This document shows, one piece after another, positions 1 through 8,364 of a stretch of 8,364 nucleotides of DNA. The translations under genes were made by a program, and so were the position numbers. Within the stretch, counting starts at the first letter, position 1. Every line of letters starts with the position of its first letter. Where the stretch lies: IMG/VR virus record IMGVR_UViG_2778261360_000001, positions 1-8,364 of that record, one strand, 5' to 3'. This DNA comes from a virus (taxonomy: Duplodnaviria > Heunggongvirae > Uroviricota > Caudoviricetes). Below the pieces are notes generated by a model. That model saw only the letters and a list, made by a program, of their open reading frames with translations, was not told where the DNA came from and made no database searches.

Positions 1-56
1 GAAGCAGAAAAAGCTTATTATGCTTCCATCGGAAACGATGATCTGGCAGCCTGAGT

Positions 57-1064
57 TCACAGATAAAATACTCTCCAGGAAACCCGGGGCGGTTCAGTTT
101 CCAGAAGCGCATCAGTTTCACGGATTGGTACACCACGGAATGAAGTCCACCACTCGCCTTCAGTCTCTTTTACGCTGATAGCCAGAGATGTTTTCTCCAG
201 AGATTGCAGATCAAGAGCCTGGCCTACAGTGCGGTTCATGTAGAACACCGGGCGACCCATGCCACGGTTTGGAATGCGATGCAGTGCTTTAACCATCAAC
301 TTCGCAATATTTGCGGCAGAGGAAGGTTCTGAAAGATTGCTGACATCGATGTTTGCAATGCGAACAACATAACGCCAGTCACGCAGAGCAAGTCCGTTGT
401 CCCATTTGTAATGGGTACGGTAGCCTTCGTACTTGCCGCCATTAACATCTTCCAGTGTCACCTGGCCTTTATCTTCCATCTGGATGCCAGCCTTCTGCCC
501 TTTCGGGAAGATGCCATGCACGGTGTTTTCGCCCCACACCACTAACCAGATTGAGGTGTTATCTGTACCCGTGCCACCAGCATCAATGATGTTCTGAGCA
601 TTACCCGCAGACAGGCTGGAATAGCGGGAGGACAGTCCCATAAACTGCTGAGGGTTAACGCTGGAATCACCATAAAACAACGTCTGCGCCATCTGCTGAT
701 TCATCGCTTCAATAAATGCGCGGTCTTCAGACAGGCGGAATTCGGCGGTATTACCGTTCAGATCAGCCAGTGACTTATCGACTTCAGCATAGGTTTCCAG
801 CATTCCAACGGAATCGGTGACCTGCACTGTGGTTGATTTGCTTGGCTGTACGCCATAGTTCAGCAAACGCCAGGTGGCTGAAGGTAAACCAGAACGAATG
901 GTGGTTCGGTGTCCGGTAGGAAGGTTCCCTTCGACAAAAGGCATATCCTGAAGGATCGGGTTAGTTTGACCGAGAAGCTCGATAATCTTATCGACTTTCC
1001 CGTTTGGATCGACGCGCTTACCCCAGTCAGCCAGCGTTAGCGCAGTTAAGCCTTTAACAGCCAT
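57..1064 (-). CDS. Major capsid (coat) protein, about 335 aa. The start is probably the second ATG at 1064; the longest ORF starts at 1070.
   Basis: Long intact minus-strand ORF directly downstream of the scaffold-like gene, in the canonical portal-scaffold-capsid order. The SD-like AGAGGAA at 1071-1077 gives about 7 nt spacing to the ATG at 1064 but only 0-2 nt to the ATG at 1070. Size (about 37 kDa) fits a coat protein. Family not confirmed by search. Confidence 0.7.
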   Translation of the reverse strand: MAVKGLTALTLADWGKRVDPNGKVDKIIELLGQTNPILQDMPFVEGNLPTGHRTTIRSGLPSATWRLLNYGVQPSKSTTVQVTDSVGMLETYAEVDKSLADLNGNTAEFRLSEDRAFIEAMNQQMAQTLFYGDSSVNPQQFMGLSSRYSSLSAGNAQNIIDAGGTGTDNTSIWLVVWGENTVHGIFPKGQKAGIQMEDKGQVTLEDVNGGKYEGYRTHYKWDNGLALRDWRYVVRIANIDVSNLSEPSSAANIAKLMVKALHRIPNRGMGRPVFYMNRTVGQALDLQSLEKTSLAISVKETEGEWWTSFRGVPIRETDALLETEPPRVSWRVFYL

Positions 1065-1078
1065 TGTCATTTCCTCTC

Positions 1079-1774
1079 TTATTTGCCATAGAGCACTTCG
1101 GCCGCACTACGCTGGCCTTCATTACCACCGGTGACCATGCCATCTTCAGACATCGCCTTTCCGATTTTCACGAACGTTTTGACCAGATCAGGGTGATTAC
1201 CCAGCCCGGTGGTGTTCAGATATTCTTTGAGCTCAGGTGTCCCGAACTGGTCAAGCGCACGCTGTGCGGCGCTAAGGTTAGAAATCAACTTGTCGCCACC
1301 GATTTCTTTGTCAGCTTTTACATCCGCAGCCCACTGCTCGGTTGTTTTCTGCCAGGCTTCTGCCTGGCGCTGCTGAACACCTGCCAGAATCTTCGGATAA
1401 GCATCAACCAGCTTTTGCGCTTGCTCGTTGGTCAGGTTAAGTTCTCGCGCCACCGGCTCGAATTCCTTCAACGCTTCTGTATCCAGCTCTACGCCTTCGG
1501 CAGCCTGAAACTCGTACTTCTCAGGCGCACCCTCTGGTTTATTGCCGTCCTTTTTTTCATCCTGCTTATCGTTTTCAGGCTTTTTGTCATCAGCAGGTTT
1601 ATCGCCATCAGCAACAGGTTGTGGCTTATCACCTTCCTGTTGTGATGGATCACCAACTGGAGCAGGGTTATCACCTGCAGGCGCTGACGGTTCTGACGCA
1701 GCCGGAGCTGCTCCACCATCGACTGGTTGCTCATTGCAAAGACGGCGATACAGCAAACGCTCAAATAAATTCAT
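1079..1774 (-). CDS. Putative scaffolding protein, about 231 aa from the ATG at 1774. The listed ORF begins at a GTG at 1780 that overlaps the upstream stop.
   Basis: Acidic, Lys/Glu/Pro-rich low-complexity N-terminal half and a helical-looking C-terminal half, sitting between portal and capsid. AGGAG lies 5 nt upstream of the ATG at 1774 (minus-strand sequence CAGGAGTGATCATG). Confidence 0.6.
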   Translation of the reverse strand: MNLFERLLYRRLCNEQPVDGGAAPAASEPSAPAGDNPAPVGDPSQQEGDKPQPVADGDKPADDKKPENDKQDEKKDGNKPEGAPEKYEFQAAEGVELDTEALKEFEPVARELNLTNEQAQKLVDAYPKILAGVQQRQAEAWQKTTEQWAADVKADKEIGGDKLISNLSAAQRALDQFGTPELKEYLNTTGLGNHPDLVKTFVKIGKAMSEDGMVTGGNEGQRSAAEVLYGK

Positions 1775-1776
1775 GA

Positions 1777-2073
1777 TCACTCCTGTTCACTGGCCTCTTT
1801 GGCCATCTTCAAATACTGTTCAGGGCAATGCGCCATAACGCGCTGAAACAGTTCCAGCGCCAGATTGCGTTGCCCCTCATTAAATGCCATTGCCATAGCG
1901 TCCATCGGTGAGATAGCGGAAAACACACGGCCTTTCTCCAGCTCCGACCAGACAACGCGACGCCCCTGTTCACTGCTCATGACAAAGCGAATGTCATCAA
2001 TTTCACGCTGCGCCATGTCACGTTGCTTACGGGCGTTTTCTTCTTTCAGTTGATCGTCTTCGTAATCTGTCAT
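1777..2073 (-). CDS. Hypothetical head-assembly-associated protein, 98 aa
   Basis: ATG start overlaps the portal stop (ATGA) and its TGA stop overlaps the scaffold start region, so it is translationally coupled within the operon. No recognisable motif. Confidence 0.55.
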   Translation of the reverse strand: MTDYEDDQLKEENARKQRDMAQREIDDIRFVMSSEQGRRVVWSELEKGRVFSAISPMDAMAMAFNEGQRNLALELFQRVMAHCPEQYLKMAKEASEQE

Positions 2074-3503
2074 TGTGATTGCCCACCCTGACCACTAACT
2101 GCATTCGCCATAGCTGACAAAACACTCGGATCCGAAGTTTTAGCTTCGCTTAGCGTCTTGGCACCCTGTGCCGCCGCCATCCCCATCGCCATCATTTGTT
2201 GCTGCTGTTGCTGCTGTGCCCGTTGCTGGCGAGCCTGCTCAACCTGTTCCTGCGGAACAATGACGGTTGGAGACACTCCGGACATATCAGCGAATGCATC
2301 GATCGCCTGATCAACGTTGAGTTTGTCGAGAGCTTCTGGTTTCGCTTGCGCAAGTTGACCAATGAAGTTAACCGTGGACGCCAGACTGGACAGGCCGATA
2401 GACTTCTGAGCCTGAGCCATGACGGAAATGTATTCGACCTTCAGGGGCATGCCTTCCATCGCGTCAGGCGGTGGCGGCAACATGTTTTTACGCACCATCA
2501 TCGAGAAAGCGCGGTCAATGAGAGGATTAAGACATTCGTCGTTCAGACGCTCCAGAACCGGCCCCAACATCAGAAGTTTTTCTTCTTTCATTTCGATCAC
2601 CGCTTCAACAGGCATCGAGCGGGTATTGATGTTCTGCAACATCATGAACAGATCGACAAAGTAGGCGCTGTTAATGATTTGCCGAGTGTCCTGAATGTCT
2701 GCTACCAGATCTGCTGTACTGGGGTTAACCAGATAAGCAGGCCTGAAGCCATCCTGACCAGTAATCTGATCGATATACGTGATGTCGCCAGGAAGAAGGG
2801 AGGTGCGCTGATTCTTGAGGGAAGTCGGAGCAACCATCGGCGGATTGGTGGCTTTATCAATCAACTGCGACTTGCGCTTCTGGAGAAGCTGCAATGCCTT
2901 AACAGGTCCAAGCGCCAGCATACCCGGGCATGATGATCCATAAACATCTTCGCCGTTAACTTCCCAGCGCGGAGCCATAATTGGAAACTCATCGAATCCT
3001 GACTCACGCAACAACTTGTCGTTATCGCCACCAACCTCGTAATAAACCGATTTGAATGGCTTGTTCTTGCTATCCAGCTTCGATGTATCGCGGTCAATGT
3101 TCGGGTAAACCGAATGCATCACTTCAATCCACTTCTCGTAGGTACCTCTTTCCCACATGCTTTTTACGGATTCGCTGACGTTATTTAGCCCGAACTCCTG
3201 AACAAGCTGACGAACAGTCATAGAGAACTTGCGAAAACAGGTGTCCACACTGCCACGAGGTGAGTTAGCCAGGTAGTAACTGCCTATCGGGAATGGCATT
3301 GTGCGAATGATGTCCTCGTCATCCTCCAGTACCGCCATTGCACCGGTGCTGTATGTGCCGAGGCTTCCGTATAACTGCGGCAGCGACTGATAGAGATTCG
3401 ACTTATTGAACATATCGTTCATGCGGTTCTGCACCGCCTCAAGCCACAACTTAACAGGGCCATAATCCATCATTTCAGGATCTGGCGTAGCCAGCGAAAC
3501 CAC
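2070..3503 (-). CDS. Portal protein, C-terminal segment (frame B) of a frameshifted portal gene. The ORF-finder start is an internal GTG with no SD.
   Basis: 477-codon ORF immediately downstream of terminase and upstream of scaffold and capsid. Its reading frame is open upstream of the nominal GTG and overlaps the end of ORF 3470-3748 in another frame. Contains a poly-Gln tract near the C-terminus. Confidence 0.7.
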   Translation of the reverse strand: MVSLATPDPEMMDYGPVKLWLEAVQNRMNDMFNKSNLYQSLPQLYGSLGTYSTGAMAVLEDDEDIIRTMPFPIGSYYLANSPRGSVDTCFRKFSMTVRQLVQEFGLNNVSESVKSMWERGTYEKWIEVMHSVYPNIDRDTSKLDSKNKPFKSVYYEVGGDNDKLLRESGFDEFPIMAPRWEVNGEDVYGSSCPGMLALGPVKALQLLQKRKSQLIDKATNPPMVAPTSLKNQRTSLLPGDITYIDQITGQDGFRPAYLVNPSTADLVADIQDTRQIINSAYFVDLFMMLQNINTRSMPVEAVIEMKEEKLLMLGPVLERLNDECLNPLIDRAFSMMVRKNMLPPPPDAMEGMPLKVEYISVMAQAQKSIGLSSLASTVNFIGQLAQAKPEALDKLNVDQAIDAFADMSGVSPTVIVPQEQVEQARQQRAQQQQQQQMMAMGMAAAQGAKTLSEAKTSDPSVLSAMANAVSGQGGQSQ

Positions 3504-3748
3504 GGACGCGCGGGGCTTGTGATGCCTGACATCATGCCGCTGGCGAGAGTGCGCGCCGCCATAGTCCCGGTCGAATCAATAATGCGTGTATTGCGTCGAT
3601 CGTTACGGTTGACCTCAGAAGTCAGAAAGCGGGAACCACGCGGGTTGATGTAATCACTCAACTCGCGCCAGTGCGGCTCGAACGACTGACGCTCGCTTTC
3701 AAGTTGTGCGAACTGTTTGTTCAATCGCTCTTTAGTTGTTTCCGCCAT
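3470..3748 (-). CDS. Portal protein, N-terminal segment (frame A); probable 5' part of the same portal gene, interrupted by a frameshift near 3501-3515
   Basis: ATG at 3748 is preceded by GGAG with 8-nt spacing (CGGAGTCATTGAAATG on the minus strand). The ORF ends inside the open upstream frame of the 477-codon ORF. The two pieces together would give a portal of about 560 aa. Confidence 0.6.
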   Translation of the reverse strand: MAETTKERLNKQFAQLESERQSFEPHWRELSDYINPRGSRFLTSEVNRNDRRNTRIIDSTGTMAARTLASGMMSGITSPARPWFRWLRQILK

Positions 3749-3762
3749 TTCAATGACTCCGG

Positions 3763-3969
3763 TTACTGACCAAGCAGCGTTTTACCGCTGGTATTAGCGG
3801 TTGATGTGTCGCCCTGAGAACCGGTAAGCAGCGTAGAACTACGACCAGCAGCAGCGCGACGGCGACGTGTTTCTTCGTCGCGGGCATCAACAACGGCGGC
3901 ATCCTGCTCCTGTGGTGCTGCCTGAACTTCTGGTGTTGCAGGCACTGATGGTGAGCTACCCATGCACAT
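3763..3969 (-). CDS. Small hypothetical protein, 68 aa, Ala/Pro/Gln/Arg-rich and low complexity
   Basis: Its ATG is preceded by exactly the same 12-nt initiation cassette (CGGAGTCATTGA, then 1 nt, then ATG) as the portal N-terminal ORF. Position corresponds to the small gene often found between terminase and portal. Confidence 0.4.
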   Translation of the reverse strand: MCMGSSPSVPATPEVQAAPQEQDAAVVDARDEETRRRRAAAGRSSTLLTGSQGDTSTANTSGKTLLGQ

Positions 3970-4037
3970 ATCAATGACTCCGTACGCAATTAAATTATTA
4001 CCAATTTAACCACATATGATTTATTTATCGTAGATAG

Positions 4038-4066
4038 TTGACATTTAACGCACGAATCATTACCTT
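4038..4066 (+). promoter_or_regulatory. Candidate sigma70-type promoter: TTGACA (4038-4043), 17-bp spacer, TACCTT (4061-4066)
   Basis: Perfect -35 hexamer with a 17-bp spacer and a weak -10 (T1, A2, T6 conserved), in an AT-rich intergenic stretch upstream of the plus-strand leader and tRNA. Confidence 0.3.
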
Positions 4067-4396
4067 TCAGGTAAGCAAAGAGTTCATTCCGGTTATTAAC
4101 CTGACTGGCTTGTCGTTAAATTGAACAGGTGGAGTGAGCTTTTATTTTGAGCAGTACGGCGTATGGCACATGCGCCGATAGCGGTCTGGATACGTTTAAG
4201 GGGCACCCTCCCTTGCTCGAGCAAACGAACCAGGTAGCCGGAATGTGCAAGTCGAGCGGTTTTATTCCGCGCACGGGGATTCACCATCCCGGCGATTCGG
4301 TGTGACGCCTCGGAAGAGACGAGGGTACAACGATGAGAGCATTTATGGAGCCGCGACAAAGTGTGGCGCCTTAACAGGCTAAGTGCTCTCAGCGTT

Positions 4397-4473
4397 GTGG
4401 CATTAGCTCAGTTGGACAGAGCAACCGCCTTCTAAGCGGTTGGTCGCAGGTTCGAATCCTGCATGCCACGCCA
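4397..4473 (+). tRNA. tRNA-Arg, anticodon TCT (reads AGA), 77 nt with encoded CCA
   Basis: Hand-folded cloverleaf: 7-bp acceptor stem (GTGGCAT/ATGCCAC, all Watson-Crick), D-arm GCTC/GAGC with A20, anticodon stem ACCGC/GCGGT, loop CTTCTAA (U33, anticodon TCT, A37), T-arm GCAGG-TTCGAAT-CCTGC, discriminator G, CCA. Resembles host argU but has different acceptor and anticodon stems. Confidence 0.9.
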
Positions 4474-4516
4474 GAATCACGCCTAAGGACCGTGATGCCA
4501 GAAGTTCCAGGGGCTT

Positions 4517-4558
4517 GGCGGTGATGGTTTCCCTTGAAGGACTATCACCGCCCTTTTT
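4517..4558 (+). terminator. Putative intrinsic terminator downstream of the tRNA
   Basis: 9-bp stem GGCGGTGAT (4517-4525) pairing with ATCACCGCC (4544-4552), then C and TTTTT (4554-4558). The loop is large (18 nt). Confidence 0.45.
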
Positions 4559-4636
4559 ACAGCAGGACGCCATTGCGATGACTTCATGCTGTAAACCCGT
4601 ACAGCCACGGAAGGCATAACTCATTGCTTCCAGTTC

Positions 4637-4660
4637 GCCCGGTTCGCCGGGCATTTTTTT
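4637..4660 (+). terminator. Intrinsic terminator or attenuator immediately upstream of the RBS of the 123-aa gene
   Basis: 6-bp GC stem GCCCGG (4637-4642) pairing with CCGGGC (4647-4652) around a TTCG tetraloop, followed by A and TTTTTTT (4654-4660). The T-run runs straight into AAGGTGAGATT-ATG. Confidence 0.6.
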
Positions 4661-4671
4661 AAGGTGAGATT

Positions 4672-5043
4672 ATGAACGACCAGCAAATCGAAAAAGAAAT
4701 CGTTGAGAAAGGCAAAACTGCTCCGCGCGTTACGCCAGACCATATCGGAAGCATTATTGCTCAGGAGGCATATTTCACAGCAGAGGATGGTGCCTTTGGC
4801 AAAGCCATAAAAGCGAAACATACTGGCGGAGAGGTAAACTACCAGCCGCACGAATCACTTTCTCTGCTGACGTTCTGCGTCCTGGTGCTGCGCAACGGCT
4901 TCACCGTCACCGGAGAGAGTTCCTGTGCAAGCCCGGAAAACTTTGATGCAGAAATTGGTCGGAAGATTGCCCGACAGAATGCTGTAAACAAAATCTGGAT
5001 GCTTGAAGGTTACTTGCTGAAGCAGAAGTTAAGCGAGCAATAA
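4672..5043 (+). CDS. Conserved phage protein of unknown function, 123 aa; tentatively resembles the phage Gp49 (N4 gp49 / Sf6 gp66) family
   Basis: Only convincing plus-strand ORF. AAGGTGA SD lies 4-5 nt before the ATG, and it is flanked by terminators on both sides. Family assignment is from memory of the motif and is not verified. Confidence 0.7.
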   Translation: MNDQQIEKEIVEKGKTAPRVTPDHIGSIIAQEAYFTAEDGAFGKAIKAKHTGGEVNYQPHESLSLLTFCVLVLRNGFTVTGESSCASPENFDAEIGRKIARQNAVNKIWMLEGYLLKQKLSEQ

Positions 5044-5046
5044 CAC

Positions 5047-5060
5047 CGTGACATGTCACA
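5047..5060. repeat. 14-bp sequence CGTGACATGTCACA with a 12-bp perfect palindrome core (GTGACATGTCAC), copy 1
   Basis: Identical 14-mer also at 7312-7325. Lies just after the stop of the 123-aa gene and in the 3' flank of terminase large. Confidence 0.8.
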
Positions 5061-5063
5061 AAC

Positions 5064-5090
5064 AGCCAGCCTATGAGCTGGCTTTGTTTT
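5064..5090. terminator. Bidirectional intrinsic terminator between the convergent 123-aa gene and terminase large subunit
   Basis: 7-bp stem AGCCAGC (5064-5070) pairing with GCTGGCT (5077-5083), 6-nt loop, TTGTTTT on the plus side; AAAACAAA precedes the hairpin on the minus-strand transcript and a GTTTGTG tract follows it. Confidence 0.6.
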
Positions 5091-5133
5091 ATCCTCACCA
5101 GAGGATATCAACGACATTATCCCCACCAGAGGA

Positions 5134-6609
5134 TTAAGCATAGGGATCGTAATCTGTGATGGCCTTGCCTTGCTGGTTCTGCTGCCCGGGAATTCGCAGA
5201 CGCTTCGACACAGGGAACGCAAACGTCAGCAGTAGCGCATCGCCTTTACCAGGAGAACGCCCAAGCCGCTCTTTGATATCTTCCTTCGGTTCGATAACGA
5301 TTTTACCGTCCACTCGAACTTTGTACTCTGCCGCCGACAGGTCGTCCGCTGTTTCCTGGTCATCCAGCATGCCGCCGAGCCTCAGCCATGTCTTGCATGC
5401 ATTGAACATCTCCCCACGCTTGTTAAGCATCTGCGGGTCAGTGGACGCACCGCCGAACGGAACAAGTTGCCATGTACGACCCCAGCCGTCACCGATTGAC
5501 TTCAGACCGGTACCGTAACCAAAGTCGATGAACACTGCGTCAGCCTGATACTGGTCTTCAAAGTCAGCGATACGCTTCGCCATAATCAGATCGTCGGTGG
5601 TCTTGTTACCAGTCCATAGCACCTTACTGTGCAGCCCCTGCCGCAGGTATATCACAGCGTCATCAACGCCGGAGTATGCCGGGTCAACGCCGATTATCAC
5701 CGGAGCATGTGCAACCTGCGCAGCGGTTACCACCCGTTTCATTGCCTCGTCAGTAAGGCCGGTAGGGATAAACTGCAATTCAGATGCATCCGGGAATATG
5801 CCGCGCACACGGATTTTAACGAAGTCGCTGTCTTCCCCGTAGTCATCAACCCATTTCTGCAACTGCTGTTTGTTAGTGCCTTCCACCGTCCGGCTGTCAA
5901 TCTGCGCAGTTTTCCAGCGGTGTTTATATTTGCGGAAACATTCGCGAAAACGCCCGGTGTTACGTGTAGGGTTTCCGAACGCCACCCAGATGATTTCGGT
6001 GTCTTCGTCCGTCAGCGCACCCTCTGCTACCTCCCACACCAGATCGGCAATGTTCGACGCTTCATCGAATACCACGATGATGCGTTTGCGCTCGTTGTGT
6101 AGTCCGGCGAATGCCTCAGTGTTGTGCTCAGACCAGGGGATTGCGTCAGCTCGCCACCGCTTGTCATGCCCAGGGTCATTGCTGTACATCGCGGTAGCAG
6201 TACAGGTAAACCAGTATTTCGTGATAGCAAGGTTCGACCACTTGATAATTTCCGGCCAGGTCTTCGTTCGTAGCTGGTTGTCGGTGTTGGCGGTCACCAC
6301 GACCTTACAATCCTCGCAAGTGGACATGCCCCAGTTGATCAGCATTGAGATGAATGCGGATTTACCAATACCGTGACCCGAAGCACGTGCCAGCATAAGC
6401 GGCTGATAGCGCGTCTCTGGATTCTGCAGGTGATCACGTATCTCTCGGAACGCATCAGCCTGCCACTTACGTGGACCGGTGGCATGTGCTAATTCAGTCC
6501 CCTCTTCCCCCCACGGGAACGCATAGAGGGCATAGCCAAGCGGATCGTGAGTGAACCCTGCAATATCCTCGATCAACTGCTCTTCAGGAGATAACGCTGT
6601 ATCTGTCAC
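5134..6609 (-). CDS. Terminase large subunit, 491 aa, GTG start overlapping the terminase small stop (GTGA)
   Basis: P-loop-like motif (ASGHGIGKS) in the N-terminal ATPase region, acidic-residue-rich C-terminal half consistent with a nuclease domain, size, and translational coupling to the upstream small-subunit gene. AGGA lies about 9 nt upstream of the GTG. Confidence 0.88.
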   Translation of the reverse strand: MTDTALSPEEQLIEDIAGFTHDPLGYALYAFPWGEEGTELAHATGPRKWQADAFREIRDHLQNPETRYQPLMLARASGHGIGKSAFISMLINWGMSTCEDCKVVVTANTDNQLRTKTWPEIIKWSNLAITKYWFTCTATAMYSNDPGHDKRWRADAIPWSEHNTEAFAGLHNERKRIIVVFDEASNIADLVWEVAEGALTDEDTEIIWVAFGNPTRNTGRFRECFRKYKHRWKTAQIDSRTVEGTNKQQLQKWVDDYGEDSDFVKIRVRGIFPDASELQFIPTGLTDEAMKRVVTAAQVAHAPVIIGVDPAYSGVDDAVIYLRQGLHSKVLWTGNKTTDDLIMAKRIADFEDQYQADAVFIDFGYGTGLKSIGDGWGRTWQLVPFGGASTDPQMLNKRGEMFNACKTWLRLGGMLDDQETADDLSAAEYKVRVDGKIVIEPKEDIKERLGRSPGKGDALLLTFAFPVSKRLRIPGQQNQQGKAITDYDPYA

Positions 6610-7202
6610 TGATTACCATCCTGACGTTCTTTGAGTCGCTTCCTGGCTGCTGCTATGCGATCAGCAATTGTCACATTCACATTAACATCCAGACGTTCTT
6701 TGAACGCGTTGACATCAACATGCTTACCAATCATCTCAAGGTTCTTCACCTTGTCAGGCCATTTAATTTTTTTGAGGATTGTCTCTATCGAATCCTCGTT
6801 CATGTTCATGATGGTCGATGACAGATCAAAGCCACTAAGCGTAGTGCGCCAGATTTTCGGCCACTCACGGATTGGTTTAAGGCTCCCATCGTCGTTGAGG
6901 ATGTCGATCACGTCCATCTGGTCGATCTCCACCAGGCGCATGAGAACGTAATCAGCACTGACGCGCATTCGTTTGTTGCGCTCCTCCATCAACTCGGCAA
7001 TCCGTTTTTGAATGCGTTCATCGCGCATCATGACACTGGCTTTAACTGCCGCTGTATTTGGGGAGAATCCTGCGTTAATCGCTGCCTGAGTCTGGTTTTC
7101 AGGCGTTTTGATGTATGACTGGCAATAAGCCTCCTGCATTGCTGTTAGTGGCTTAAATTGCGTTGATTTGCGTTTATAGGTTTTATGTTCAGCAGGCATC
7201 AT
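6606..7202 (-). CDS. Terminase small subunit, about 198 aa. Start is at the ATG-ATG pair at 7202/7199; the ORF-finder extension to 7280 uses a TTG and runs through a terminator hairpin.
   Basis: N-terminal region (KPLTAMQEAYCQSYIKTPENQTQAAINAGFSPNTAAVKA...) matches the helix-turn-helix N-terminus typical of phage small terminase subunits. Lies immediately upstream of, and overlaps, the terminase large gene. Confidence 0.8.
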   Translation of the reverse strand: MMPAEHKTYKRKSTQFKPLTAMQEAYCQSYIKTPENQTQAAINAGFSPNTAAVKASVMMRDERIQKRIAELMEERNKRMRVSADYVLMRLVEIDQMDVIDILNDDGSLKPIREWPKIWRTTLSGFDLSSTIMNMNEDSIETILKKIKWPDKVKNLEMIGKHVDVNAFKERLDVNVNVTIADRIAAARKRLKERQDGNQ

Positions 7203-7209
7203 AACCACC

Positions 7210-7238
7210 GTGGTAATAGTTACCGTTGTGGTAATAGT
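7210..7238. repeat. Two exact 11-bp direct repeats, GTGGTAATAGT at 7210-7220 and 7228-7238, each followed by (T)ACC, directly upstream of the terminase small start
   Basis: Read directly from the sequence; 18-bp periodicity. On the minus strand the unit is ACTATTACCAC, repeated twice. Confidence 0.8.
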
Positions 7239-7243
7239 ACCAT

Positions 7244-7271
7244 GCAAAATAAAGCCGCCATAGTTGGCGGC
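7244..7271 (-). terminator. Intrinsic terminator on the minus strand between the small upstream genes and terminase small
   Basis: 7-bp stem GCCGCCA/TGGCGGC with a 4-nt loop (7254-7271), followed on the minus-strand transcript by UUUAUUUUG (plus-strand 7244-7253 is GCAAAATAAA). Confidence 0.6.
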
Positions 7272-7311
7272 AGTATTCAAAACCCATCAAATTCATCATG
7301 CATAATCTACT

Positions 7312-7325
7312 CGTGACATGTCACA
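7312..7325. repeat. 14-bp sequence CGTGACATGTCACA (12-bp perfect palindrome core), copy 2; overlaps the stop codon of the RHH-like ORF
   Basis: Identical to 5047-5060. Confidence 0.8.
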
Positions 7326-7659
7326 CTATTAATTTCGTTTCATGCCAGCCTTTGGTCACCCAGCATTGCGAGTCACCATTACACGGGCATGAATTCACAG
7401 GAACTCTCTCGCCGCACTTACCGCAACGTTTTCTGCTGATCGATTTTATACGCCCGCGCACGCGTGCATCATCCTGGCGGATCAGCAGCGCGATGTACTC
7501 GGCCATTTCATAGGGATCGCGACCAGGGCGCCGGGCGGCGCAGTTCCGCGCCAGCATTTCCTGCTCCTGCTTATCCAGCACCAGTTCAATTTTGCGCTCA
7601 CCGGCGGCGGACTGCCGAGCGCGCTGCGCGGCTTTGCGTTCTGCGGGGGATTTAGCCAC
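7321..7659 (-). CDS. Putative small DNA-binding protein, about 112 aa: ribbon-helix-helix-like N-terminus and Cys-rich (zinc-ribbon-like) C-terminus. GTG start at 7659 or 7668.
   Basis: An RKIELVLD strand-like segment followed by a helix fits the RHH pattern; C-terminal CGKCG...CPC...C cluster. No ATG until codon 38 of the longest ORF. GGAG lies 8 nt upstream of the GTG at 7659. The start region overlaps the end of the 40-aa peptide ORF. Confidence 0.5.
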   Translation of the reverse strand: MAKSPAERKAAQRARQSAAGERKIELVLDKQEQEMLARNCAARRPGRDPYEMAEYIALLIRQDDARVRGRIKSISRKRCGKCGERVPVNSCPCNGDSQCWVTKGWHETKLIV

Positions 7660-7774
7660 GAATCGCACTCCACGCCAGATTGATTAATGACTCCCAGGCA
7701 ATATAAACCCGGATACCAGCAGCCAGGCCGAAACCAATCACCATGGCATAAAGCAGAGCGTTGCACTTGTTCAT
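7652..7774 (-). CDS. Small hydrophobic membrane peptide, 40 aa (MNKCNALLYAMVIGFGLAAGIRVYIAWESLINLAWSAIRG); not in the supplied ORF track
   Basis: ATG at 7774 overlaps the TAA stop of the DUF551-like gene (TAATG) and is preceded by a strong SD (AGGAGGTGAAGTA-ATG). One predicted transmembrane segment. Hand-translated from the sequence. Confidence 0.5.
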   Translation of the reverse strand: MNKCNALLYAMVIGFGLAAGIRVYIAWESLINLAWSAIRG

Positions 7775-8079
7775 TACTTCACCTCCTGTTTCGGCACTGC
7801 TGGCATTTCACGCCAGTGCGTAACTGAGTGCGGATCCGGATATTCGGTGCCATCATCCCAGCGATTGCCATTCCACATTGCAGACCACATCTCACCGTCT
7901 TCATACATGACCATTACCGGAATTAACTTATCTGGCATCTGCTCACTACAGCTTATCCAACCATCCTTAATGCAATTACCTTGACTCTGAAGCATAGCGG
8001 CACGACAGGCGTTCCAGCCTCTCACCTCTGCAATAGCGGCAACAGCATCGACCGCGTACATTTTAAGAGGGTTAGGCAT
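7774..8079 (-). CDS. DUF551-like phage protein, 101 aa
   Basis: C-terminal segment W-x(n)-P-x(n)-VTHWREMPAVP resembles the conserved C-terminal motif of the DUF551 family common in lambdoid early regions. Weak SD. Recognised by eye. Confidence 0.6.
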   Translation of the reverse strand: MPNPLKMYAVDAVAAIAEVRGWNACRAAMLQSQGNCIKDGWISCSEQMPDKLIPVMVMYEDGEMWSAMWNGNRWDDGTEYPDPHSVTHWREMPAVPKQEVK

Positions 8080-8148
8080 TGGTTTTTCTTCAGGTACTAC
8101 TGGAATGGGTGGGGCGGCGTAGACCTCAATAATTCCATTATCAATAGG

Positions 8149-8364
8149 TCATTCTCCATCCTTGAGGTAGTCACTTGTGCCGTCAACTTGCTGTTCTGCA
8201 ATGTGGAATGCACCTATTGGTTTTGCTTCCAGCGATGCCAGAGCAATTCGTGCCAGTTCTTCCGCTTCTTCTGCTGGCAGTACAACGTTGCTACCAGGTC
8301 CGTATGTTTCGCGCCACTGCTTGATTGTCAGCAGTCGCCCTTTGGTAATAGTGATCATGCCGCG
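8149..8364 (-). CDS. Hypothetical protein, 5'-partial at the window edge; the frame is still open at 8364
   Basis: ORF in the same frame as the DUF551-like gene, separated from it by a single TGA (8149-8151) and 23 sense codons. The ATG at 8358 may be internal. Confidence 0.4.
   Translation of the reverse strand, partial: RGMITITKGRLLTIKQWRETYGPGSNVVLPAEEAEELARIALASLEAKPIGAFHIAEQQVDGTSDYLKDGE

Follow-up and report, generated by a model that had tools for sequence, protein, structure and literature searches.

What is a lone tRNA gene doing between the terminase and portal genes of a temperate phage, on the strand that its late head operon does not use? The question is raised by a Caudoviricetes record of IMG/VR (IMGVR_UViG_2778261360_000001), of which positions 1 to 8,364 were analyzed; this whole stretch of 8,364 nucleotides is referred to here as the window. 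The gene is a tRNA-Arg(UCU) with an encoded CCA end, located on the plus strand at positions 4397-4473. With about 97% identity to phiV10, the O157 typing phages 9 and 10, TL-2011b, ZX5 and further Uetakevirus members, the window is the head module of a temperate podophage of the phiV10/epsilon15 type. An earlier reading of the bare sequence, called here the sequence-only reading, had proposed that the gene is a phage-borne tRNA supporting late-gene translation, and that its stems, which differ from those of the host gene argU, might matter for resistance to nucleases. We find a pseudoknotted, structured RNA of about 240 nt (4156-4399, plus strand) directly upstream of the tRNA and overlapping it. 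We think it rather probable that the two belong to an early, repressor-controlled RNA-plus-tRNA unit, in which a functional elongator tRNA supplies decoding of AGA and of some AGG codons.

The tRNA gene is real and intact. ARAGORN reports it as the single tRNA of the whole window (tRNA-Arg, anticodon TCT, 4397-4473, plus strand). The Rfam tRNA model RF00005 matches it over the full length with 73.3 bits (E = 5e-15), well above the gathering score of 29, and by this score it is a bacterial elongator tRNA. The acceptor stem consists of seven pairs, all of them Watson-Crick (GUGGCAU/AUGCCAC), and is followed by the discriminator G73 and the encoded CCA. The D loop reads AGUUGGACA and includes A20, the anticodon loop is CUUCUAA, the variable loop has five bases and the T arm is canonical. 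The ARAGORN call, the Rfam score and these cloverleaf features confirm the coordinates as well as the tRNA call and exclude a chance match. The E. coli arginyl-tRNA synthetase (ArgRS) recognizes its substrates by A20, C35 and U36. All three are present along with the UCU anticodon, so that the Arg identity elements are indeed kept, and charging by ArgRS is predicted from the sequence.

The gene is also not a copy of a host tRNA. Aligned with the chromosomal argU of E. coli Sakai it matches at 64 of the 77 positions and differs at 13, and apart from two variable-loop bases and the D-loop base 20a the differences lie exactly where the sequence-only reading had placed them, namely in three pairs of the acceptor stem (2-71, 4-69 and 6-67) and two pairs of the anticodon stem (29-41 and 30-40). 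All five differing stem pairs are changed on both sides and are hence compensatory. The D stem, the anticodon loop, the T arm and the discriminator-CCA are identical. Compensated stems combined with kept identity elements and a kept anticodon loop fit a tRNA under purifying selection. Copies at least 95% identical were found in about 505 of 5515 E. coli records and, among the records searched, only in genomes that carry the prophage; in the remaining records the best match is argU, with 85.9% over nucleotides 7-77. Because of the 13 differences and the restriction to about 505 of 5515 records, the tRNA is not a host core copy, and these comparisons place it in a phage lineage separate from argU. 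It shares with argU (tRNA-Arg4) the UCU anticodon, the identical loop, D stem and T arm, the discriminator-CCA and A20, and differs from it in its location in a prophage, its fusion to a structured RNA and its carriage by prophage carriers only.

Other phage tRNAs that read AGA are likewise distinct. The ileZ-argN-argO cluster of Stx phages, for which phage 1717 is our example, also consists of rare-codon tRNAs of temperate E. coli phages and includes a tRNA-Arg(UCU). However, those genes lie together as an array of three on the late transcript, between Q and stx, whereas the window tRNA is single, antisense to the late genes, located behind a repressor-type palindrome and fused to an RNA. With 75% identity to the tRNA-Arg(UCU) of phage 1717 and this other context, the window tRNA is not of the argN/argO type. 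A second phage lineage of tRNA-Arg(UCU), with an acceptor beginning TTGCCTG, has the anticodon arm and variable loop exactly as in the window tRNA. It was found at 33 IMG/VR loci, without the upstream RNA, and follows terminators or other tRNAs (for example at L158, L159, L161 and L163-L166).

The roughly 240 nt in front of the tRNA share 82% identity with Stx2c-converting phages and, in blocks, 75% with a Stenotrophomonas phage. In these homologues, stretches without variation are interspersed with hairpins in which both sides of the stem have changed. The pseudoknotted core of the RNA (4156-4326, plus strand) is matched by our covariance model R1 with 176 bits at the window locus. It contains helix P1 (4157-4165/4169-4177), helix P2 (4186-4189/4230-4233), an invariant pairing of GCC with GGC (4237-4239/4291-4293), helix P4 with the loop UUCACCA (4276-4279/4287-4290) and helix P5 with the loop GAAGAGA (4308-4312/4320-4324). 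The pseudoknot is formed by CACC of the P4 loop (4282-4285) with a downstream GGUG (4299-4302). The core also holds an invariant 19-mer, GGUAGCCGGAAUGUGCAAG (4233-4251), the apparent invariance of which is inflated because the homologue sets were seeded on this exact 19-mer. The 3' domain (4326-4399, plus strand) is one long hairpin, P6, in which UACAACG (4326-4332) pairs with CGUUGUG (4393-4399) in the minimum-free-energy fold; RNAalifold recovered this closing helix, [U/C][A/G]CAAC with GUUGUG, from 13 variants.

The structure model was built by hand and tested on an alignment of 89 distinct sequences. In this set 96.6% of the cells are paired, a share that falls to 27-48% once the partners are slid; in 12 pairs both sides have changed, and 0 of 500 shuffles were as good. 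The pseudoknot pair is C-G 69 times and A-U 20 times, with 0 mismatches. In an independent set of 27 distinct rows, mostly bacterial genomes, 95.4% of the cells are paired (26-50% with partners slid), 13 pairs are changed on both sides and again 0 of 500 shuffles did as well. This set was aligned by the covariance model, which does not contain the pseudoknot, and the pseudoknot pair is C-G 22 times and A-U 4 times. G-U pairs are abundant: column pair 8-18 is U-G 88 times and pair 5-21 is G-U 51 times. Read from the opposite strand, these pairs would turn into A-C mismatches, which places the RNA on the plus strand, like the tRNA. A long-range pairing of GCACAU with AUGUGC, the first suggestion of RNAalifold, involves invariant bases only, and we preferred the local hairpin P1, where covariation is seen (G-C to A-U 24 times).

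Several simpler identities for the region were considered and dismissed. A protein-coding reading of 4096-4396 fails because the minus-strand open reading frame (ORF) at 4096-4359 and its counterpart in the Stenotrophomonas phage translate into unrelated products, and it is also ruled out by indels among the homologues whose lengths are not divisible by three; a short ATG...TGA frame on the plus strand lies in different frames in different copies and was rejected as well. Of the known prophage small RNAs, the Pas sRNAs and lambda PreS/LPR1 are different molecules, being smaller, of the Hfq type and located at other positions. The AGA within the P5 loop could be mistaken for a T-box-like specifier, but the same loop stands beside the tRNA-Ile2 of phage P1 and in copies without a tRNA. 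In some variants (L025, L057, L071 and others) the 3' strand of P6, equivalent to window 4383-4392, reads UGCUCUUU, which are the first eight bases of rrn boxA. The single off-consensus variant (L099, UGCGCUC) has a matching partner, AAGCGCA, and the likeness to boxA is probably a coincidence.

The RNA is widespread. BLAST matches fall into three contexts: phages P1, P7, D6 and their relatives, where it lies between trnI and ban; lambdoid phages such as mEp460, cdtI, 2H10, Ayreon and the Stx2c phages; and epsilon15-type phages of Salmonella, Klebsiella and Enterobacter. Within Enterobacterales the family thus spans P1, lambdoid and epsilon15-type phages, and outside them it extends to one Stenotrophomonas phage. 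Written as DNA, the 19-mer (GGTAGCCGGAATGTGCAAG) was matched in more than 119 contigs of IMG/VR and also in genomes of Kosakonia, Citrobacter, Klebsiella, Enterobacter, Kluyvera, Phytobacter, Erwinia, Buttiauxella and others. About a third of the complete E. coli genomes (1844 of 5426) carry the core, 554 of its places being on plasmids. Rfam 15 holds no family that matches it, at E values up to 1 over the whole window (the tRNA aside) and up to 10 over 4090-4420. No annotation lies under the RNA match in the E. coli rows listed of 2124 matching records, and in the GenBank and RefSeq records examined the sole annotation over the RNA consists of hypothetical-protein ORFs, which only some of them have. 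No description of the RNA was found in the openly accessible papers searched. Its fusion to the tRNA, the explanation that this offers for the acceptor stem and the placement of both RNA and tRNA in repressor-controlled early transcripts appear to be new.

The link between RNA and tRNA is one-sided. Among 127 RNA loci, about 30 have a tRNA-Arg(UCU) on the 3' side, 0-65 nt past an approximate boundary derived from the window, and in these the tRNA actually abuts the RNA end. Another 17 loci, of the P1 type, have a tRNA-Ile2(CAU) on the 5' side, 16-18 nt away and on the same strand, and about 80 have no adjacent tRNA. For the converse, IMG/VR was scanned with the tRNA anticodon arm: at 80 of 80 testable loci of the GTGGCAT-type tRNA the RNA is directly upstream, with the junction CGTT|GTGGCATT. 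The closing helix of the RNA ends in GUUGUG, and the final three of these bases are nucleotides 1-3 of the tRNA; copies of the RNA without a tRNA still terminate in CGTTGTGG. In eight tRNA variants the 5' acceptor strand GTGGCAT is constant, while the 3' strand is ATGCCAC, ATGCCGC or ATGCTGC, giving G-U pairs. The acceptor stem may therefore diverge from argU because its 5' strand GUGG is shared with the RNA closing helix; on this small sample, we infer that at least part of the acceptor divergence comes from sequence shared with the upstream RNA. Directly 3' of the CCA follows a small hairpin (AUCACG, a 9-nt loop and CGUGAU; 4476-4496, plus strand), which a comparison of the downstream flanks finds in every tRNA-linked variant. 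In Phytobacter ursingii (L134 2210-2288 and L154 1186-1264) an unusual 79-nt "tRNA-Ile(AAU)" is called about 420 nt downstream of the RNA on the same strand.

How might such a unit be expressed? Upstream of the RNA we read a candidate sigma-70 promoter on the plus strand, TTGACA (4038-4043) and TACCTT (4061-4066) with a 17-nt spacer, whose -10 element is overlapped by a perfect 15-bp palindrome, TTACCTTTCAGGTAA (4060-4074). Palindromes of this kind are enriched. In phiV10, TTACC-N5-GGTAA with at most one mismatch occurs at 14 sites where 0.66 are expected, a roughly 20-fold excess, and the sites cluster at the immunity region and ahead of several transcription units. The window has 3 such sites (4060-4074, 7202-7216 and 7220-7234) where 0.06 are expected, and in the record of epsilon15, sites that correspond in gene order are labeled "repressor, lysogeny". 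A weaker promoter-like site, TTGAAC and TATTTT with a 16-nt spacer (4121-4148, plus strand), was read by eye; it matches 8 of 12 consensus positions, lies below the scan threshold, and would start transcripts at about 4155, the 5' edge of the conserved RNA. Downstream, 44 nt past the tRNA, the terminator scan places an intrinsic-terminator-like hairpin of 14 pairs followed by a T run (4517-4559, plus strand), which is kept downstream of the tRNA at other loci, and a second terminator-like site with a T run follows at 4637-4652 on the same strand. Because the tRNA is encoded opposite to the late genes and follows a promoter-like site with an overlapping repressor-type palindrome, it lies outside the late transcript.

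The other phages point to the same timing. In 62 of about 124 RNA loci a same-strand gene that encodes a CI-type repressor (helix-turn-helix and S24 peptidase domains) ends about 150 nt ahead of the RNA. In the Stx2c phage (L003) the cI stop codon is followed by a terminator, a strong promoter of the PL type with an overlapping palindromic operator, and the RNA. This promoter, TTGACA and CATAAT with a 16-nt spacer, matches 11 of 12 consensus positions, and the RNA begins about 45 nt after the predicted transcription start, the position held by nutL in lambda and putL in HK022. In phage P1 the RNA lies unannotated between trnI and ban (AF234172, 71023-71191; L007 2501-2669), on the same strand as the gene for tRNA-Ile2, a decoder of the rare codon AUA, and 15-17 nt past the CCA of that gene, within the C1-controlled early ban operon. 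P1 differs from the window in that the tRNA is 5' and not 3' of the RNA and of another isoacceptor, and in that most P1-type copies have no 3' hairpin domain. In all three contexts the RNA therefore belongs to repressor-controlled early transcripts, which supports the timing proposed here for the tRNA.

The codons that the tRNA would read are common in the phage. The 53 annotated genes of phiV10 (12,114 codons) contain AGA at 7.1 and AGG at 4.5 per 1000, compared with 0.74 and 0.53 per 1000 in 41 core genes of E. coli Sakai (14,964 codons). For E. coli as a whole genome, AGA is near 2 per 1000. AGA is thus elevated in the phage genes, and on this count the sequence-only reading stands. Over all genes of epsilon15 (12,330 codons) the values are 4.4 for AGA and 4.1 for AGG. 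In the virion block phiV10, which has the tRNA, uses 30 AGA in 6028 codons (5.0 per 1000), while the homologous block of epsilon15 has 8 in 6137 (1.3 per 1000; AGG 2.3 per 1000). In the homologous interval between TerL and portal of epsilon15 we found no tRNA and only a remnant of the upstream RNA, and the lower AGA use in its virion block fits a co-adaptation of tRNA and codons. The remnant is 86 nt long (41.7 bits with the covariance model; L008 2506-2591) and adjoins an RNase III processing site annotated by the depositors. In phiV10 the AGA codons are located in genes for tail and injection proteins, the tailspike, Rz and replication proteins, and in small early genes. By the same count there are none in TerS, TerL, the portal, the protease, the major capsid protein and the decoration-like protein. 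The proposal of support for late-gene translation hence holds only in part: the phage genes are rich in AGA, but the neighboring head genes are free of it and the tRNA is off the late transcript.

Taken together, we favor an early unit under repressor control. It would consist, in this order, of the promoter-like site with its palindrome (4038-4074), the RNA (4156-4399), the tRNA, the small hairpin and the terminator (4517-4559). In the lysogen it would be silent, and it would be turned on early upon induction or infection. RNase P would then cut the precursor at 4396/4397. Because the closing helix of the RNA ends inside nucleotides 1-3 of the tRNA, one such cut would produce the mature 5' end of the tRNA and at the same time the 3' end of the RNA before it. 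With the repressor gone from its site, the freed tRNA would add decoding capacity for AGA and, weakly, for AGG. The beneficiaries would be the early, tail, injection, tailspike and lysis genes, in which these codons are used about 3 to 10 times more than by the host.

A number of points weigh against this reading. The 4038-4066 promoter is a weak match to the consensus, is below the threshold of the promoter scan and was not reported by it. Control through the palindrome at 4060-4074 is something we infer, with the binding protein taken from annotation. The genes free of AGA are the most highly expressed late genes. The host codon baseline is drawn from 41 core genes only. The contrast of phiV10 and epsilon15 is that of one phage pair with different hosts, and since epsilon15 is viable without the tRNA, the gene is dispensable for this type of phage. 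Finally, the portal gene of this very prophage is frameshifted, which makes selection for lytic function uncertain here. The frameshift is a one-base deletion relative to phiV10 at about 3494 (TTTCGCCTGG to TTTCG-CTGG) that splits the ORF, and it reflects either a defective prophage or a sequencing error.

The tight fusion allows for another emphasis, in which the tRNA is mainly a processing handle that lets RNase P release the RNA with a defined 3' end, decoding being secondary; in the P1-type loci the tRNA-Ile2 would set the 5' side instead. This would account for a tRNA lineage that is never found without the RNA (80 of 80 loci), for the invariant junction with its overlap of the closing helix and tRNA nucleotides 1-3, and for the 17 P1-like loci in which tRNA-Ile2(CAU) flanks the RNA on its 5' side. 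Processing of phage regulatory RNAs by RNase P has precedents in the C4 RNA of P1 and the CI RNA of P4. However, about 80 of the 127 RNA loci have no adjacent tRNA, and the RNA thus needs none. Both linked tRNAs read rare codons (AGA and AUA), which a pure handle would not require, and the window tRNA has retained all Arg identity elements and fully compensated stems. We therefore regard a mere handle as rather unlikely.

Nor do the altered stems speak for a role in anti-defence, in which the phage gene would replace a host tRNA-Arg(UCU) destroyed by a nuclease and would itself resist cleavage. There is precedent for phage tRNAs that rescue infection from tRNA-cleaving defences, namely PARIS (PMC11464382) and retron effectors (PMC11555353), and phage tRNAs have been proposed more generally to counter tRNA-targeting defence, evasion being achieved by changes in the anticodon loop (PMC10264068). 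The second tRNA-Arg(UCU) lineage, whose 33 loci are unrelated in context, agrees exactly with the window tRNA in its non-host anticodon stem and its variable loop, which could reflect selection but is only a hint and may equally be due to common descent of the anticodon arm. The documented route of loop changes (PMC10264068) does not apply here, since the anticodon loop CUUCUAA is the same as in argU, and the difference in the acceptor is accounted for by the fusion with the upstream RNA. The literature searched contains no E. coli defence that is specific to tRNA-Arg(UCU). Colicin D, which cleaves all tRNA-Arg isoacceptors, does so in the loop region. The idea that the stem differences confer nuclease resistance is thus left unsupported, and we consider a spare-part function improbable.

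It is scarcely more attractive to see the tRNA as a gene of lysogenic conversion, expressed from the prophage to help the host or other acquired AGA-rich genes and not lytic growth. The arrangement resembles a moron: the unit stands by itself, on the strand opposite to the late operon, and ends in a terminator of its own. The prophage is common, since 495 of 5426 complete E. coli genomes contain at least 80% of the window, and the tRNA here has the commonest sequence of its lineage even though the portal is broken. Yet a repressor-type palindrome overlaps the best promoter candidate, and the contexts in the lambdoid phage examined (beside cI, with a palindrome-overlapped promoter) and in P1 (the C1-controlled ban operon) point to repressed, early-lytic expression, so that we give conversion little credence. 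Lysogeny that depends on the tRNA, in which integration destroys a host tRNA-Arg gene and the phage copy compensates, is known from actinobacteriophages (PMC10865867) but is very improbable here, where the judgment on integration rests on a relative and not on the window prophage itself: the close relative vB_EcoP_ZX5 has its integration site at the 3' end of guaA and not in a tRNA gene (PMC9782041), argU (85.9%) remains a separate locus in the records listed without the prophage tRNA, and the tRNA is distant from integrase and attP.

If the tRNA of the early unit decodes rare codons, what does the RNA in front of it do? Its position in the Stx2c phage invites comparison with the put RNAs, which measure about 70 nt and form two stem-loops (PMC9378689). 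The window RNA is built differently: its core is about 170 nt long and contains five helices as well as a pseudoknot, and there is one copy per phage. Homology to put was rejected, as model R1 gave no hit in HK022 or at the annotated putL-like RNA of HK639 even with filters off. In the lambdoid phage examined, no N-like gene was found in the next few ORFs. Two terminator-like sites follow the RNA-tRNA unit in the window, whereas in the Stx2c and P1 contexts no plus-strand terminators were predicted beyond the RNA; the idea of antitermination consequently gained no support there.

Large structured prophage RNAs that often lie beside tRNA genes are known in GOLLD and ROOL, which are 500-800 nt long, occur mostly in Firmicutes and are contained in Rfam. 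The RNA described here is similarly phage-borne, highly structured and recurrently adjacent to tRNAs, but it is only 170-240 nt long, enterobacterial and without an Rfam match. It is possible, and we put it forward tentatively, that the RNA is an undescribed class of phage early-leader RNA that acts on a conserved host machine, and that tRNAs for rare codons (Arg-UCU and Ile2) have been joined to it so that their processing enzymes release the RNA and deliver the tRNA at once. Such a leader may target RNA polymerase, as a put-like processive antiterminator or as an anti-Rho element on untranslated early transcripts, or it may be processed into a trans-acting RNA. Action on RNA polymerase in the manner of put and a role as a processed trans-acting RNA seem the two most likely functions.

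The neighborhood of the unit is that of a head module. On the minus strand are the genes for the small terminase (TerS, 7280-6606), the large terminase (TerL, 6609-5134), a small ORF (3969-3763), the portal (3748-2070, here as ORFs 2070-3503 and 3470-3748), the protease (1780-1079) and the major capsid protein (1070-57). A 123-aa ORF of the N4 Gp49/Sf6 gene 66 family (Phage_gp49_66, Pfam PF13876, E = 6e-34; annotated as PhiV10p03) lies at 4672-5043 on the same strand as the tRNA, after both terminator-like sites, and is itself followed by a terminator-like site at 5064-5083. Together with the tRNA it makes up a small island on the plus strand, which lies between TerL and portal and is antisense to the late head genes. 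The tRNA is already annotated in the GenBank records of typing phages 9 and 10 and of phiv142-3, and the genome paper of ZX5 reports one tRNA in that relative (PMC9782041). The phiV10 RefSeq record (NC_007804, 2672-2923) has no tRNA feature; there, a hypothetical protein, PhiV10p04, on the opposite strand covers the tRNA. The annotation can thus be corrected, with a tRNA in the place of a spurious ORF.

The tRNA alone adds little, as rare-codon tRNAs are familiar in temperate coliphages. What matters is its context: a widespread, unannotated and covarying RNA, present even in the well-studied phage P1, which takes the first position of repressor-controlled early transcripts and is fused to rare-codon tRNAs. 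If the function of this RNA is found, it could reveal a new way in which temperate phages control early transcription or take over the host. It could also provide a testable reason for the acceptor sequences and genomic positions of some phage tRNAs, a question that is decades old.

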